Made by a program: the position numbers and the translations under genes. Below, piece after piece: positions 18,813 through 62,931 of a stretch of 64,000 nt of DNA. The stretch is from the NCBI GenBank assembly GCA_965263035.1, contig OZ253580.1:2464001-2528000 (forward strand), written 5' to 3'. The notes below the pieces were generated by a model. It did no database searches. It was not told the origin of the DNA and saw nothing but the letters and a program-made list of their open reading frames with translations. Positions within the stretch are counted from its first letter, which is position 1; every line of letters starts with the position of its first letter. The DNA is from Acidobacteriota bacterium. GTDB taxonomy: Bacteria; Acidobacteriota; UBA6911; RPQK01; JAJDTT01.

Positions 18813-19487
18813 CTATTCCTTCTCGAAAAGGAGAAACTCCCTTTCTCTCAATCCGGCTCTCCTTGGATTCTCGCGGATATATTCCAGGCACTTCAAAAAG
18901 TGCAGAGGGTGCCGGATCAACCGATCCCAATAGTCTTTCTGCCAGATCTTGGCGTATTTTCCGGTCTTCTGGTTGATCACATGAGCCGTAAATCCCTTCC
19001 AGGATCTGACGATGTCTCTGAGATGATGAGAGCCAAGAGGGCGAAACAGCACATGGACATGGTTGGGCATCACGACGAAGGCGGCCAGTTCGTAACGCCG
19101 GCCGTCGAAATGCCGCAGTGAGTCAGCCACGACTCGGGCCAAGGCCGGATCCTTCAGGAGGCAGAACCCGTTCCCTTGATCCAGCCAGTCCTCGATTCGT
19201 CGAGAGAATTGATTGACGTAGCGTTTCGCCGTCCGCGCATCCCAGGGTCTTGGATGGTGTTTCAACCAGAATCTTCGTTCTTCCCGCCACTGATCCAGTT
19301 TGGCGTGTGGAAGCGAATCTCCCAGCCGCCAAGTCACGAAGACGAAGTGTTCACGCTTGTGCCAATGGGGCAGGCGGTTGTACCAAACGTCAATGGTTCC
19401 AGACTGATCAAAAGAGGAGCCGAAGCTTTCCAGCCACCAATTCTTCGAATCGCATGCCACAAATTTCCTAACGATCCCCTCACCCAA
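18813..19487 (-). CDS. REP-associated tyrosine transposase (RAYT, HUH Y1 family)
   Basis: LPHW, FVTWRLGDSLP, VVMPNHVH (HUH), WQKDYWDRLIR, YIRENP; REPs on both sides; start uncertain. Confidence 0.88.
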   Translation of the reverse strand: MGEGIVRKFVACDSKNWWLESFGSSFDQSGTIDVWYNRLPHWHKREHFVFVTWRLGDSLPHAKLDQWREERRFWLKHHPRPWDARTAKRYVNQFSRRIEDWLDQGNGFCLLKDPALARVVADSLRHFDGRRYELAAFVVMPNHVHVLFRPLGSHHLRDIVRSWKGFTAHVINQKTGKYAKIWQKDYWDRLIRHPLHFLKCLEYIRENPRRAGLREREFLLFEKE

Positions 19488-19927
19488 TCGACGATAGATT
19501 GGGAGTATCCATGTTGCAAGTGGTGGGTGCTAATCGGTGTTTCCATCCCGTGTCGTTAGTACGTGATCTGTCCGGTCCAAAGGGCACAGGGTTAGGAGGA
19601 GCGTTCTTCCGCCGGAGGTGAGGCGGAGATCGAGCTGGATCCAGCGGGCGCCGTGCAGGGGGCGATGAGTGGACCGATAACTGGATCGAGGGACCTGAGA
19701 TCGTCGACGTCAGTCCTCCGGGAGGTCCGGATACGCCCTGGGGAGCGTCGGGTCAAGCCTCCGGCTCCTCCGCTTCGCTGCGGCCCTTCGGGTGACCCGG
19801 CGCTCCCCAGGGCGTGAAGAGCTTTCATGGCCGTAAGCAAGCTTCCGGCCAGACTTGACCGGAAGTTCGACAGACGGCCATCAGGGGGTCCACACGCTCC
19901 CTTTCCTCACGGGGTCTCTCCGTGGCC

Positions 19928-20875
19928 TCAGAAGGTCGCTCGGGGCGCTACGGGCAACCAGGTGCGGTCCTGCCGGACGAGGGTGTTGGCCAGGACGATA
20001 AGCTTGCGCATGACGGCGACGAGGGCCACCTTGCCGGGCTTGCCGCGCTCGCTCAGCCTCCGGTACACCTCGGCCAAGTCGGGGTTCCAGCGCAGGGCGG
20101 CCACCGCCGGCATGTACAGGAGCCGTCGCGCCCGCGCCCGTCCGCCCCGGATGAAGGCCCGGCCCTGCCAAGCCCCCGACTCGCGCGGAACGGCGGCCAG
20201 CCCGGCCAGACTGGCGGCGGCCTTGCCGCTGAGGGCGCCCAGCTCGGGCATCTCGGCCAGCAGACCGGCGGCGGTGGTGGCCGCGATCCCGGGAATGGAG
20301 GTGAGGATCTCCAACTTGCGGGCCCGCGCCTCGTCGGCCGCAATCAGCGTCTGCAATTTGCGGTCGATGGCGCGCAGGTGGCGCTCGAACATGTTGATCT
20401 GGATCTGGTTCTGCTGTTTGAGCAGGGGTTCGCGGAGCTGTCGGCGGCGGTTGAGCGCGGCCGTGCGCTGGCGCATCAGCGCGTCCCGGGACGTCTGCAG
20501 ATCCTGGAGCCGGCGTTGCGTTTTGGACGGCACCTGGGTCCGGCGCGGCTCCAGCGTGGCGGCCAGCTGGGCCAGTTTCCGAGCGTCTACGGCGTCGGTC
20601 TTGGCGCGGCTCCCGGTCGCCTCGGCGAAGCGCCGCGCCTGCCAGGGGTTCACCTTCGCCAGCGGCAGCTTCGCTTTGGACAGCGCTTCCTCGAGGTCCC
20701 GGTGGTAGGGACCGGTGGCCTCGTACGCGATGCACTCGACCGGAGTTCCGATCCAATCAATCAGCGCCCGGAAGCCGGCCGGGTCATTGTCGAACTGGGC
20801 GGAATGGCCGTCGGCCAGCCGGTGCGCGTCCAGGTGCGCTTTCGAGATGTCGATGCCTACGGTATGCTGTTTCAT
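19928..20875 (-). CDS. IS110 DEDD recombinase/transposase
   Basis: GIDISK, YEATG, AKTDAVDA, SIPGI, RESG, VAVMRKL. Confidence 0.95.
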   Translation of the reverse strand: MKQHTVGIDISKAHLDAHRLADGHSAQFDNDPAGFRALIDWIGTPVECIAYEATGPYHRDLEEALSKAKLPLAKVNPWQARRFAEATGSRAKTDAVDARKLAQLAATLEPRRTQVPSKTQRRLQDLQTSRDALMRQRTAALNRRRQLREPLLKQQNQIQINMFERHLRAIDRKLQTLIAADEARARKLEILTSIPGIAATTAAGLLAEMPELGALSGKAAASLAGLAAVPRESGAWQGRAFIRGGRARARRLLYMPAVAALRWNPDLAEVYRRLSERGKPGKVALVAVMRKLIVLANTLVRQDRTWLPVAPRATF

Positions 20876-21055
20876 CTTTCCTGTCTCCTGTGCTTGTCAT
20901 TCGGGCCTTGATGCCCTCGTATCCATTCAGGACATCGGGAAAGACGGTGGCCGACCTCACTCCCATACGGTTCGTAACAGTCCGCGGCGGTACGGTCCAG
21001 CCACCGCCGTCCGGGTCGCTCATGAGCGACCCGGACGGCCCCATTTAAACAGACA
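20876..21055 (-). ncRNA. Putative IS110 bridge RNA (copy 1)
   Basis: 5' hairpin, then a loop with ACCGCCGC/TGGGAG (matches target flanks) and a loop with ATGGATAC/GACAAG (matches element ends). Confidence 0.75.
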
Positions 21056-21056
21056 A

Positions 21057-21175
21057 GCGGCGGTTTTCTTGCCGCCGATTCGGGGGGTAGGGGGGACGAT
21101 TAGTCCCCCCCTCCTCTTCGTCTTCTTCCTTCTCGATCCGGAGTGGGCGACAAGAAAGTCGCCCCTCCCAGCGGG
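21057..21175. repeat. Composite REP doublet copy 3 (first REP cut by IS110)
   Basis: Matches 18001-18120. Confidence 0.85.
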
Positions 21176-21273
21176 CGGATTCTGTCCACCCCGTCCATTG
21201 GCCGGGTCGGGGTGAGTGGTGATCTGGCTCGGACATCTTGACATCACATAGGGGAGTCATCATGATGACTCCC

Positions 21274-21534
21274 ATGCGGACGACGTTAACTATCGAACCG
21301 GATGTCGCCCAGGTCCTACGGCGAGAGATTCGGCGTTCCGACCGGAGTATGAAAGCCGTGGTGAACGATGCCTTGCGAATCGGTCTCGGGGCGCAGGGCA
21401 AAGCCCCGCGGACGTCTCGATACGAGGTGAATCCCCATGCCTTCGGCTTCAAGCCGGGTATTGACATCTATCGGCTCAATCAACTGGTCGACGAGTTGGA
21501 AGCGGAGGAACTGGGTCGAAATAGTCAACTGTGA
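21274..21534 (+). CDS. VapB-type antitoxin
   Basis: MRTTLTIEPDV, VVNDALRIGL; overlaps the PIN gene. Confidence 0.85.
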   Translation: MRTTLTIEPDVAQVLRREIRRSDRSMKAVVNDALRIGLGAQGKAPRTSRYEVNPHAFGFKPGIDIYRLNQLVDELEAEELGRNSQL

Positions 21535-24373: not shown

Positions 24374-24703
24374 GTGAATGTTGATCTGATCAGGGTCTTG
24401 GTGGCAGTGGCGGCAGTGGGCGTCGGTCTTGGCGGACTGACGTTGGCCGGCGTGCGAGGGCTGGGTCGCGAAATGCGGGGCCTGCGGCAGGAGACGCGGG
24501 ACGAAATCCAAGGCTTGCGGCAGGAGATGCGGAAGGAAATCCAAGGCCTGCGGCGGGAGACGCGGCACGATATACGGGACATGCGCGGCCACATGGGACG
24601 AATCGATTCCCATATCGGCGAACTCCGGGAACGCATGGGGCACGTGGAAGGACTGTTGAAGGGGTTGCGCGACGCTTTCGTCCAGGGGATCACCCCCAGC
24701 TAG
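24374..24703 (+). CDS. Small single-TM coiled-coil protein (33-bp repeats)
   Basis: MNVDLIRVLVAVAAVGVGLGGL, repeated IQGLRQE, HMGRIDSHIGELRERMGHVEGLLKGLR; paralog of 30323-30577. Confidence 0.8.
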   Translation: MNVDLIRVLVAVAAVGVGLGGLTLAGVRGLGREMRGLRQETRDEIQGLRQEMRKEIQGLRRETRHDIRDMRGHMGRIDSHIGELRERMGHVEGLLKGLRDAFVQGITPS

Positions 24704-24807
24704 GAGCCTGCGCCGCAGAAATTGATCTACTGCGAAAGCGGTAGAATCGGTCCATATTTCCTCGATTCCCCACTTTCTCGCTACGATCATTTCTACCGCG
24801 CAGACTC
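24704..24807. mobile_element. MITE copy 1 (55-bp internal deletion)
   Basis: Imperfect TIRs GAGCCTGCGCCGCAGAAATTGATC / GATCATTTCTACCGCGCAGACTC. Confidence 0.8.
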
Positions 24808-24949
24808 CCAGCTCGTAGTGGCGAGGAGGGGCGATTTCCAGTCGCCCATCCTTCCGCTCCCCCGTGGGCTCCTTCCCCCATGCTCTTCTGCTCTATTGAT
24901 ATTTGGGAGTGCGGCGACAAGAAAGCCGCCGTTCCCATCGGCGGCAAGA

Positions 24950-30577: not shown

Positions 30578-31121
30578 CTGATCTCCGTTGAAGTCCCGAA
30601 TGGGGCGCCTCCGGATCCCGGCGAACAGGAACAGCCTACGTTTTGCGATGAATCCGGTCTATACGAAGCATTCTTCCGTTGGCCGGCGGCGATTGTCAAC
30701 GTTCAATACATATAACGACGGCCGCGAAGAATAGATGATCGATCCTTGAAAAACGTGTCCATCAAACTCGAGAGTATCCATGTTGCAAGTGGTGGGTGCT
30801 AATCGGTGTTTCCATCCCGTGTCGTTAGTACGTGATCTGGCCGGTCCAAAGGGCACAGGGTTAGGAGGAGCGTTCTTCCGCCGGAGGTGAGGCGGAGATC
30901 GAGCTGGATCCAGCGGGCGCCGTGCAGGGGGCGATGAGTGGACGGATCAACTGGATCGAGGGACCTGAGATCGTCGACGTCAGTCCTCCGGGAGGTCCGG
31001 ATACGCCCTGAAGAGCTTTCATGGCCGTAAGCAAGCTTCCGGCCAGACCTGACCGGAAGTTCGACAGACGGCCATCAGGGGGTCCACACGCTCCCTTTCC
31101 TCACGGGGTCTCTCCGTGGCC

Positions 31122-32069
31122 TCAGAAGGTCGCTCGGGGCGCTACGGGCAACCAGGTGCGGTCCTGCCGGACGAGGGTGTTGGCCAGGACGATGAGCTTG
31201 CGCATGACGGCGACGAGGGCCACCTTGCCGGGCTTGCCGCGCTCGCTCAGCCTCCGGTACACCTCGGCCAAGTCGGGGTTCCAGCGCAGGGCGGCCACCG
31301 CCGGCATGTACAGGAGCCGTCGCCCCCGCGCCCGTCCGCTCCGGATGAAGGCCCGGCCCTGCCAAGCCCCCGACTCGCGCGGAACGGCCGCCAGCCCGGC
31401 CAGACTGGCGGCGGCCTTGCCGCTGAGGGCGCCCAGCTCGGGCATCTCGGCCAGCAGACCGGCGGCGGTGGTGGCCGCGATCCCGGGAATGGAGGTGAGG
31501 ATCTCCAGCTTGCGGGCCCGCGCCTCGTCGGCCGCAATCAGCTGCTGCATTTTGCGGTCGATGGCGCGCAGGTGGCGCTCGAACACGTTGATCTGGGTCT
31601 GGTTCTGCTGTTTGAGCAAGGGTTCGCGGAGCTGTTGGCGGCGGTTGAGCAGGGCCGTGCGCTGGCGGATCAGCGCGTCCCGGGCCGTCTGCAGTTCCTG
31701 GAGCCGGCGTTGCGTTTTGGACGGGGCCGGGGTCCGGCGCGGATCCAGGCTGGCGGCCATCTGGGCCAGTTTCCGAGCGTCTACGGCGTCGATCTTGGCA
31801 CGGCTCCCGGTCGCCCGGGCGAAACACCGGGCCTGCCAGGGGTTCACCTTGGCCAACGGCAGCTTCGCTTTGGACAGCGCTTCCTCGAGGTCCCGGTGGT
31901 AGGGGCCGGTGGCCTCGTACGCGACGCACTCGTCCGGAGTTCCGATCCAATCGATCAGCGCCCGGAAGCCGGCCGGGTCATTGTCGAACTGGGCGGAATG
32001 GCCGTCGGCCAGCCGGTGCGCGTCCAGGTGCGCTTTCGAGATGTCGATGCCTACGGTATGCTGTTTCAT
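31122..32069 (-). CDS. IS110 DEDD recombinase/transposase
   Basis: 315-aa paralog of 19928-20875. Confidence 0.95.
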   Translation of the reverse strand: MKQHTVGIDISKAHLDAHRLADGHSAQFDNDPAGFRALIDWIGTPDECVAYEATGPYHRDLEEALSKAKLPLAKVNPWQARCFARATGSRAKIDAVDARKLAQMAASLDPRRTPAPSKTQRRLQELQTARDALIRQRTALLNRRQQLREPLLKQQNQTQINVFERHLRAIDRKMQQLIAADEARARKLEILTSIPGIAATTAAGLLAEMPELGALSGKAAASLAGLAAVPRESGAWQGRAFIRSGRARGRRLLYMPAVAALRWNPDLAEVYRRLSERGKPGKVALVAVMRKLIVLANTLVRQDRTWLPVAPRATF

Positions 32070-32249
32070 CTTTCCGGTCTCCTGTGCTTGTCATTCGGGC
32101 CTTGATGCCCTTGTATCCATTCAGGACATCGGGAAAGACGGTGGCCGACCTGACTGCTTTTCGGTTCGCAAAAGTCCGCGGCGGTACGGTCCAGCCACCG
32201 CCGTCCGGGTCGCTCATGAGCGACCCGGACGGGCCTATTTAAACAGACA
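32070..32249 (-). ncRNA. Putative IS110 bridge RNA (copy 2, altered right target guide)
   Basis: Same scaffold as copy 1; plus-strand CTGCTT replaces CTCCCA. Confidence 0.7.
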
Positions 32250-32469
32250 AGCGGCGGTTTTCTTGCCGCCGATCAGGGGGGAACGGCGGTTTCCAACCGC
32301 CGAACTCCTGAGTGACAGTTTGGCGTCTAAGAATGAGCGATTGGAAATCGCCTCTCCGTTCGTCTAAGAATGGGCGATTGGAAATCGCCCCTCCGTTCGT
32401 CTTTTTGCAGCCTCTGTTCATGGCTTGCGGAGCAGGTCCCGGCGCCATATGCCACAAGGAGAACCCGAA

Positions 32470-56252: not shown

Positions 56253-56348
56253 AAATGGAGCGGCGGTTTCCGGCCGCCGAACTCCGGACGGGGCATGGGG
56301 GAATGGGCGGAAGAGAAGAATGGGCGACTGGAGAGTCTCCCCTCCTGG

Positions 56349-56507
56349 GAGCCTGCGCGGCAGAAATTGATCTACTGCGAAAGCGGTAGAATCGGTCCGT
56401 ATTTCCCCGATTTCTCGGCGAATAGAACAACTATGCACCTCCAAATCGAGAAAATCTGGCCTCGATTCCCCGATTTCTCGCAACGATCATTTCTACCGCG
56501 CAGACTC
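56349..56507. mobile_element. MITE copy 2 (159 bp, CTGG target duplication)
   Basis: Same TIRs as copy 1; CTGG on both sides. Confidence 0.85.
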
Positions 56508-56553
56508 CTGGCCCCCGGGAGAAGGCGCTACACGATATCTCGAAGGTCAGATT

Positions 56554-62135: not shown

Positions 62136-62578
62136 GGACTCCGGTCCGGTTTGCCGTATTTCTGGTGGTCGTTTGGTGGGCGCTGGTTTGGGGAGCGTTC
62201 GCGGCGGAGACGGACGCGGCGGAAAACGCCAAACTGGCGGCGGCCGCGACTCATTACGAGGTCGTCCAGCTCAAGATCGAGTCGGGCGAGTTCGACGCGG
62301 TCCTGCCCGAGATCCAGAAGATCCTGGACTTGGACTTCGGTGCGGCGAATGAAGGGGTCCTGACGCTTTCCGTGCTGAACCTGGGCGAGCAGTTGCTGAA
62401 TGCGGATCAGCATGAGCTGGCCCGGCAGGCGGTGGACGCGAGCTTGAAGGCCGTCGACCAGCCGCACAACCAGTTCATGCTGCTCATGTTCAAGGCCCGG
62501 GTCTTCAGAGACGAGGGTGAGACCGACGCCGCCCTCGAAACCTACCGCTCCGCCCAGCAACTGGTCCAGCAGTTCTAG
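62132..62578 (+). CDS. Secreted TPR-like helical protein
   Basis: Signal peptide ending GAFA, helical repeats; third gene of the sigma operon. Confidence 0.7.
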   Translation: MRTPVRFAVFLVVVWWALVWGAFAAETDAAENAKLAAAATHYEVVQLKIESGEFDAVLPEIQKILDLDFGAANEGVLTLSVLNLGEQLLNADQHELARQAVDASLKAVDQPHNQFMLLMFKARVFRDEGETDAALETYRSAQQLVQQF

Positions 62579-62737
62579 GAGCCTGCGCCGCAGAAATTGA
62601 GCTACTGCGAAAGCGGTAGAATCGGTCCATATTTCCCCGATTTCTCGGCGAATAGAACAACTATGCACCTCCAAATCGAGAAAATCCGGCCTCGATTCCC
62701 CACTTTCTCGCTACGATCATTTCTACCGCGCAGACTC
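62579..62737. mobile_element. MITE copy 3 (159 bp)
   Basis: Near-identical to 56349-56507. Confidence 0.85.
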
Positions 62738-62739
62738 CT

Positions 62740-62931
62740 ATGACCGCTGAACTGATCGTAACCATCGCTGTTGCGACAATTCTGTTCATCGTACAAATCG
62801 GACTGTGGCGCACGTTTCGATCCGAGATGGGTGAGTTGAGAGGAGAGGTCAAAGATCTGCGGTACCACGTTGCCCGCATTGAGAACGTATTGTTCGATGA
62901 CGCCGGTCCCGGCCCCAATCCTCGTGATTGA
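62740..62931 (+). CDS. Small single-TM coiled-coil protein
   Basis: MTAELIVTIAVATILFIVQIGLW..LRGEVKDLRYHVARIE. Confidence 0.7.
   Translation: MTAELIVTIAVATILFIVQIGLWRTFRSEMGELRGEVKDLRYHVARIENVLFDDAGPGPNPRD

Follow-up and report, generated by a model that had tools for sequence, protein, structure and literature searches.

An IS110-family element inserted in REPs of an Acidobacteriota genome, with a predicted bridge RNA in its left end

The window analysed here is a 64,000-nt stretch of the genome of an Acidobacteriota bacterium (GenBank assembly GCA_965263035.1, contig OZ253580.1, forward-strand positions 2,464,001 to 2,528,000; positions below are counted from its first letter). On the minus strand it carries an IS110-family insertion sequence (IS) that is very probably intact, recently mobile and working like IS621, i.e. 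with a left-end bridge RNA and a DEDD/Ser recombinase that together target the repetitive extragenic palindromic (REP) elements of the host. The main evidence for taking the motifs in its left end to be guides is natural covariation between guide and target. Together with the covariation between guide and element end, it is stronger than the evidence at the disposal of an earlier note on the window, which had been made from the sequence alone.

A DNA search of the host's own 6.2-Mb genome identifies 13 copies of the element: nine are full-length, three lack 76 nt of the right end and one is truncated. All 13 copies open with CTTGTCTG and 12 close with ATGGATACT, the 13th being the truncated one, and the ends of the element are thus fixed independently. 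CT is present at both junctions in all 12 complete copies. Read on the minus strand, the window copy opens with CT-TGTC at 21057 and closes with ATGGATA-CT at 19504 (at greater length, CT-TGTCTGTTTAAAT and CATGGATA-CT), with ...ACCGCCG as its left and CCCA... as its right flank. The left CT is preceded by the 7-nt sequence ACCGCCG in nine copies, by GCCGCCG in one and by ACCGACG in three, and the right flank begins with CC in 11 of 12 copies. The usual target lies in the 3′ arm of a palindrome that recurs through the genome, CGGCG(G/A)-loop-(C/T)CGCCG-CTCC. As the earlier note had proposed, this repeat is a true REP family: it has 174 copies under a strict pattern, and 240 under a loose pattern compared to 16-35 in five block-shuffled genomes.

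The left end of the window copy contains four motifs, namely: the left and right target guides (LTG and RTG) and the left and right donor guides (LDG and RDG), whose relations to the target flanks and to the element ends are given in Table 1. All four had been described in the earlier note, and direct reading finds each of them at the position and in the relation given there. It also confirms that both left guides stop at the first core base (the next letter is G, not T) and that AG terminates both right guides. The base following the RTG, U at 20959, fits handshake pairing with donor position 7 (A), and the base following the RDG, C at 20892, fits handshake pairing with target position 7 (G); these positions are those defined for IS621 in PMC11208158. 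In 200000 shuffles of the 182-nt left end, the motifs occur singly in 1017 (LTG), 17887 (RTG), 349 (LDG) and 10255 (RDG) cases and all four together in none, which excludes chance.

Among the copies in the genome, the LTG varies together with the target. All copies inserted after (A/G)CCGCCG carry the LTG ACCGCCGC, while the three copies inserted after ACCGACG carry ACCGACGC. Each ACCGACG site lies within an IS1182/IS5-like element, 36 nt in from its left end; this element has about 10 copies and encodes a 501-aa DDE transposase (PF13751, PF05598 and PF01609). Uninterrupted copies of this host element read ACCGAAG-CT-CCTT (four copies) or ACCGACG-CT-CCC (two copies) at this point. The three ACCGACGC copies are 98.6-99.1% identical to one another, but their host elements are less alike, one having only about 90% identity to the other two; therefore, at least two independent insertions are indicated. 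The pairing was also scored by script over 27 copies. All seven left-target positions form Watson-Crick pairs with the LTG in 23 of these, and in 26 if G-U pairs are admitted; in the control, LTGs were set against flanks from copies bearing another LTG, and 80 of these 522 combinations reach all seven. The RTG fits in 21 of 23 copies when its 4-nt version is used, and its 6-nt version fits fully in 9 of 23. The IS1182/IS5-like host element itself is found at G000:C1:144000-146100 (L121) and at about nine other places, and its copy near 4172064-4173875 is interrupted near the insertion point of the ACCGACGC copies by a different insert, about 1.7 kb long.

Relatives in other genomes, whose element boundaries were set by BLAST and reading by eye, show the same covariation with other sequences. 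Same-genus elements (86-94% amino acid identity) bearing the LTG GTCGCCGCT are inserted after GTCGCCG in four of five cases and after GCCGCCG, where a G-U pair is possible, in the fifth; two further same-genus elements have ACCGCCGC and are inserted after ACCGCCG. In three metagenome-assembled genomes (MAGs) of Ca. Foliamicus (Gammaproteobacteria), the elements have 64-69% amino acid identity and the same 182-nt left end, and their LTG GCCCTCGCT is found after GCCCTCG in five of seven cases, the other two differing only at positions capable of G-U pairing. An alphaproteobacterial MAG contributes seven loci (43% amino acid identity), which were missed by the anchors of the script and read by eye, outside the 27 scripted copies. 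Here, the LTG TTCGTGTCT matches TTCGTGT-CT in five of seven loci and the RTG CGTGAG matches CT-CACG in all seven; T occupies target position 7 and A follows the RDG, as against G and C in the window element. On the donor side, the RDG follows the left terminus: GACAAG occurs with CT-TGTC in the window element, and TACAAG with CT-TGTA and GATAAG with CT-TATC in Ca. Foliamicus, while nearly all relatives keep the same LDG, ATGGATAC, and the same terminus, ATGGATA. The guides are complementary to both strands of the target and of the joined ends, core included, and they covary with them in five element lineages. The elements of genomes G047, G049, G045 and G048 (84% and 57-58% amino acid identity) have left regions of about 615-640 nt without the CTTGTC start; these were excluded from the LTG and flank counts and included in the structure alignment described below.

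The left end folds much better than its shuffles (z = -6.1). A structure of seven helices and 43 pairs was drawn on the reference and scored on a MAFFT alignment (A1) of 20 left ends from at least seven lineages. In this alignment, 87.7% of the cells of the 43 pairs are paired, compared to 31.2-49.2% when the partners are slid by 1-3 columns, and both-sided changes occur in 19 pairs compared to 6-9 in the slid controls. The observed value is reached by none of 500 shuffles on four of five measures and by 11 on the fifth. The structure begins with a 14-bp hairpin, which agrees with the 5′ hairpin that the earlier note had seen ahead of the motifs. This is followed by the target-binding stem-loop, in which helix 3 (11 pairs) and helix 4 (3 pairs) have 88.6 and 78.3% of cells paired, respectively, and by the donor-binding stem-loop, whose helices 5, 6 and 7 are 88.6, 95 and 100% paired, the last with seven GC-to-AU swaps. 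The basal stems of the donor loop enclose the GGAG Shine-Dalgarno sequence of the recombinase gene. RNAalifold run without the drawn structure gives the donor loop with two stems, and the minimum free energy (MFE) fold of the transcript from its predicted start yields the same donor loop unaided. The earlier note had asked for such a fold and covariation analysis, holding that its motifs should not fall in stems: the comparative structure places all four guides between supported helices, i.e. in internal loops, with the target and donor loops in the order known from IS621.

The protein encoded downstream of the guides belongs to the same group of elements. Its 315-aa open reading frame (ORF) matches PF01548 (N-terminal DEDD domain, 8.9e-23) and PF02371 (C-terminal Tnp domain, 9.4e-19), and the only solved structures that match it are the ISCro4 transposase (PDB 9T56; E = 1.4e-35, residues 3-299) and IS621 (E = 2.5e-32 by phmmer). 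D9, E52, D94, D97 and S233-G234 align with D11, E60, D102, D105 and S241-G242 of IS621, for which PMC11208158 describes D11, E60, D102, D105 and S241 as a composite active site. Both the four acidic residues of the DEDD domain and the Ser-Gly of the Tnp domain are present, the window ORF is intact and all five catalytic residues are kept. The element thus has every sequence-level hallmark of the IS110 group and is a member of it, in line with the earlier note, which had called 19504-21057 an IS110 element with a left end of about 180 nt. The 182-nt left end and the recombinase gene are followed by a right end of 424 nt, which is unusually long for the group; the whole element is 1281 bp in the Ca. 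Foliamicus relatives.

According to PMC11208160, IS110 elements excise as circles and thereby rebuild a sigma-70 promoter across the core, from which the left-end RNA is expressed; this RNA has a 5′ stem-loop and two internal loops, and LTG/RTG and LDG/RDG pairing each include the CT core. By analogy with IS621, the left end of the window element would encode a bridge RNA of about 160 nt, in which a 5′ hairpin precedes the target-binding and donor-binding loops. In the target loop, the RTG (T)GGGAG would pair with the top strand CT-CC(CA), and in the donor loop the LDG ATGGATAC and the RDG GACAAG would pair likewise with the element's own joined ends. The recombinase and the RNA would insert the excised circular element at ACCGCCG-CT-CC in the 3′ arm of the REP hairpin, and the promoter at the junction of right and left end (RE-LE) in the circle would start the RNA at the 5′ hairpin, with a transcript start predicted near 21036. 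Circle formation, transcription from the rebuilt RE-LE promoter and RNA-guided strand exchange with its handshake would all proceed as in IS621, and by the same analogy the recombinase may be programmable, as the earlier note had suggested.

When the ends are joined in silico, TTGCAA of the right end is 17 nt from TTAAAT of the left end, with the core in between. The joined ends of relatives read TTGACA-18-TTGAAT or TTGACA-18-TGTAAT in Ca. Foliamicus and TTGACA-17-CATTCT in G018; in both, the -35 hexamer is a perfect TTGACA at nearly the same offset as TTGCAA in the window. The junction promoter of the earlier note has the spacing given there and a conserved position, but as a predicted promoter it is weak: it has only 8 of 12 matches to the E. 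coli consensus, lacks the A at -10 position 2 and would fail the criteria of a promoter scan. The same scan finds no promoter-like site that passes in the integrated copy. The joined-end string ATGGATACTTGTC does not occur in the assembly, and no left-end-to-right-end joint is found in the contigs of four public runs, which drop rare forms and are silent on whether circles exist. A joint of 21078 to 19500 was considered as a circle and rejected, as it represents the right end followed by another REP. In run X2, a contig joins 19503 to 21056; it skips 19504-21055 (1552 nt), retains a single CT and represents the empty site (one side of the contig is only 23 nt long), while a contig of run X1 runs from the same unique flank into the element. 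The locus is hence polymorphic. The orthologous locus in the same-genus genome G045 was set aside as an empty site: it has no IS, yet its REP is too diverged for an exact comparison. Contigs of RNA runs, which reveal neither RNA ends nor RNA amounts, cover the region. In RNA run X15, summed contig depth peaks over bins 20908-21041, at 1280-2218 (65-293 over the gene), and these bins have 600-981 in run X1 (about 265 over the gene), but contig depth cannot rank the parts of the gene and was not used as evidence.

A number of observations weigh against an element that works like IS621. With regard to the guides, one of the 27 scripted copies, the sole exception, is mismatched at left-target position 1; the extended RTG of the same-genus GTCGCCGCT elements, GTGGAG, matches at only 4 of 6 positions; and the copies at 4765112 and 2494773, the latter being the second copy in the window, carry an RTG, GCAG, that is mismatched to their CTCC or CTCT flanks. 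A third GCAG copy is truncated and has no right flank to score. With regard to the RNA, the MFE fold of the single sequence has some of the LTG bases paired with RTG bases, and the model with open loops is 17 kcal/mol above the MFE (-73.4 vs. -90.7). Within the target loop, the inner hairpin has no more than 3 bp and is weakly supported, its middle pair being kept in 8 of 20 sequences. In addition, two circumstances favour the structure: it was drawn from the reference, and 10 of the 20 sequences in the alignment A1 are near-identical. A permissive Rfam 15 search of 19300-21300 returns only sub-threshold, miRNA-like matches on hairpins and no bridge RNA family, which may only reflect that no curated family of such RNAs exists. 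To these are added the weak junction promoter described above and the 424-nt right end, which exceeds the 182-nt left end, the reverse of the trend that PMC11208160 reports for the IS110 group.

Some of these points would also suit an IS110 relic that no longer moves, its guide-like motifs being the fossils of a once functional bridge RNA. The three copies with GCAG, unfit to the flank in both scorable cases, and the lack of the circle-junction string in the assembly can be read in this way, as can the damage to the copies at 5835261 (truncated, with internal deletions) and 653129 (without the last 42 codons in the protein match). We nevertheless consider a relic unlikely, given the intact 315-aa ORF with all its catalytic residues, the 99.2-100% identity among main-lineage copies (three are 100% identical, and the window copy is 99.9% identical to another) and the presence of occupied and empty forms of the locus in the X1 and X2 contigs. 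Nor are the targets exhausted, because 91 perfect 11-nt ACCGCCGCTCC sites are left unoccupied in the genome.

It is also conceivable, and in our view very improbable, that the target is chosen mainly by the protein or by the shape of the REP hairpin, with the left-end RNA acting as a leader that controls translation of the recombinase. The sequestered Shine-Dalgarno sequence would suit a leader, both target types set CTCC opposite an upstream GGAG in a possible hairpin, and a 2026 preprint reports a sequence-plus-structure logic for ISPpu10 (10.64898/2026.03.19.712850). Yet the LTG and the target change together by a single base, and four unrelated targets in relatives are each matched by guides of their own; a leader role predicts neither complementarity to both element ends nor RDG changes that follow the terminus. 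A structural layer could, all the same, act on top of pairing. Least credible, to the point of being negligible, is that the matches between left end and flanks are due to chance or are a by-product of a palindromic, GC-rich target. The REP is indeed GC-rich and self-complementary, and the right guides, at 4-6 nt, are short enough to appear singly in 5-9% of shuffles, but the 8-mers alone appear in only 0.5 and 0.2%, the four motifs never coincide in the 200000 shuffles, and matches recur with different sequences in four other element lineages. The comparative sequence data already refute this explanation.

Table 1. Features of the window element and of its insertion site (positions in the window)
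Feature	Positions	Strand	Basis or remark
Whole IS110-family element, 1554 bp	19504..21057	minus	CT at each junction counted; one CT is the target's
Left half of interrupted REP, hairpin CGGCGG-8 nt-CCGCCG	21058..21077	minus	Ends at the insertion point
Left end, 182 nt, predicted bridge RNA gene	20876..21057	minus	Fold compared to shuffles; comparative structure
Candidate -10 hexamer, TTAAAT	21043..21048	minus	TTGAAT or TGTAAT in relatives at the same offset, +9 from core
5′ stem-loop, 14 bp	21007..21038	minus	Helices 1-2; 9 of 14 pairs changed on both sides
Target-binding stem-loop	20945..21006	minus	Outer stem of 6+4 bp, internal loop, short inner hairpin
Left target guide (LTG), ACCGCCGC	20984..20991	minus	Left flank ACCGCCG + first core base
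Right target guide (RTG), TGGGAG	20960..20965	minus	Reverse complement of CT-CCCA
Donor-binding stem-loop	20876..20943	minus	Two basal stems, internal loop, 4-bp inner hairpin
Left donor guide (LDG), ATGGATAC	20919..20926	minus	Right-end terminus ATGGATA + first core base
Right donor guide (RDG), GACAAG	20893..20898	minus	Reverse complement of CT-TGTC
Recombinase gene, 315 aa, DEDD RuvC-like domain + Tnp domain	19928..20875	minus	Pfam
Right end, 424 nt, non-coding	19504..19927	minus	Direct reading and ORF list
Nested 76-nt palindromic insert in right end	19741..19816	minus	Absent from three IS copies; solo copies elsewhere
Candidate -35 hexamer, TTGCAA	19514..19519	minus	17 nt from TTAAAT only in the circular RE-LE form
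Right target flank, CCCAAT	19498..19503	minus	Directly after core

The IS621 architecture that the earlier note had invoked, with a CT core and target and donor loops, agrees with what is found here: the core is the same, and the left-end RNA has its 5′ hairpin, target loop and donor loop in the same order. IS621 of Escherichia coli (PDB 8WT6 and related entries) further resembles the window element in its domain pair and five catalytic residues, its natural REP target, the 7-nt left target followed by the core and a right target of 2-4 nt, the LDG that stops at the first core base, the 4-nt core RTG, the fitting handshake bases and the predicted division of the promoter, with a candidate -35 in the right end and a candidate -10 in the left end. 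The differences are that the window protein is only distantly related, that its host belongs to the Acidobacteriota and that the window element is known here from its sequence alone. In addition, its left end is 182 nt as compared to 191 nt (a somewhat shorter RNA), its LTG lacks the second core base, which is present in close relatives, its basal donor-loop stem encloses the recombinase Shine-Dalgarno sequence, and its right end is longer than the left, the left end being the longer one in the IS110 group according to PMC11208160. None of these differences from the IS621 group (host phylum, long right end, short LTG, Shine-Dalgarno stem) is a new principle. The mechanism is already known: PMC11208160 (2024) covers the CT core and the promoter at the junction, reports that IS110 elements insert into REPs and that bridge RNAs occur across their diversity (predicted in 85.7% of the IS110-group elements in ISfinder), and gives the IS621 target as 7 + CT + 2 nt, with an RTG of 4 nt that is extended in orthologues. 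What is known of the mechanism, of REP targeting and of the wide spread of IS110 bridge RNAs is therefore not altered.

Among other known elements, the ISCro4 transposase is the best match among solved structures, a likeness that concerns its sequence. ISPpu9 and ISPpu10 of Pseudomonas putida are, as reported in PMC12288879 and 10.64898/2026.03.19.712850, likewise multi-copy IS110 elements at one REP position; they differ in host, target and protein lineage, and ssr9 is a small-RNA gene located downstream there. The ACCGACGC sub-lineage, whose fixed insertion point is about 36 nt in from the end of another transposable element, recalls IS4321/IS5075. In the group of the latter, however, PMC11208160 places the guide RNA in the right end and describes long subterminal inverted repeats, whereas the RNA of the window element is in its left end. 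Assignment to the IS1111 group, with its right-end seekRNA or bridge RNA, was rejected, since all four guides are upstream of the recombinase gene; only the long right end, partly due to the 76-nt palindrome, is alike, and subterminal repeats were not searched for systematically. A literature search for bridge RNA together with Acidobacteri* returned only an unrelated review.

The second window copy is located at 30773-32251 (minus strand, 1479 bp) and lacks the 76-nt palindrome. It has a REP ending in ACCGCCG on its left, while its right flank, CT-CGAG, is not REP-like and its RTG is GCAG. This looks like a half-matched insertion or a later rearrangement beside the element. The 76-nt palindrome occurs on its own at three other places in the genome and is skipped in one RNA-run contig, which jumps 19737-19812; contig depth over it is about ten-fold above that of its neighbours in DNA-like runs. 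On the minus strand, the REP hairpin (21058-21077) and the T-rich first bases of the IS (21048-21057) together score as intrinsic-terminator-like, and each insertion would therefore put a possible terminator directly before the bridge RNA gene. On the other side, a 224-aa ORF (18813-19487, minus strand) with an IS200-like Y1 transposase domain (RAYT-like) begins 17 nt beyond the IS and the interrupted REP, such a domain being of the kind found in REP-associated tyrosine transposases. As the IS adjoins this ORF, it separates it from whatever lay upstream. A copy of this gene, 68% identical and with an in-frame TAG, is found at G000:C1:3477778-3478419. BLAST matches to the left flank of the IS copy at 1125870 also revealed a MITE-like repeat of about 165 bp with well over 150 genome copies (92-98% identity), which occurs in the window at about 56345-56509 and 62575-62740 and, in part, at about 24700-24808.

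As for the wider family, the nearest relatives outside the genus are gammaproteobacterial (L070-L076, Ca. Foliamicus; 64-69%) and are closer than those of same-order Acidobacteriota (57-58%), which points to transfer of the element between phyla, as judged from protein identity. At loci L034, L044 and L035 (G047 and G049), a degenerate second donor-loop-like segment, ATGGAGAC ... GACCAG or GACAAG, is present 300-640 nt upstream of the recombinase gene, which suggests nested or tandem remnants or an enlarged composite element.

The most interesting part of these results is the within-genome, one-base retargeting from REP to IS. On balance, we lean towards the view that bridge-RNA reprogramming has been caught here in the act. 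A single C-to-A change in the LTG would have redirected one sub-lineage away from the REP and into an IS1182/IS5-like element, at a fixed site that is 36 nt in from the end of this element and upstream of its transposase gene, so that an RNA-guided IS would now specifically parasitise, and possibly silence, another IS, and other copies would carry further target-loop variants. If this is true, series of guide variants whose targets are known exist ready-made in natural populations, and the single-base specificity of left-target position 5 could be read from them directly.

For the genome itself, the element accounts for 13 repeats and several broken REP and IS loci in the annotation. For the family, it adds a cleanly annotated and probably active bridge recombinase from the Acidobacteriota. 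Together with the Ca. Foliamicus and alphaproteobacterial relatives, it provides five natural guide/target sets on one conserved scaffold, a useful start for tests of orthogonal bridge systems and of mismatch rules.

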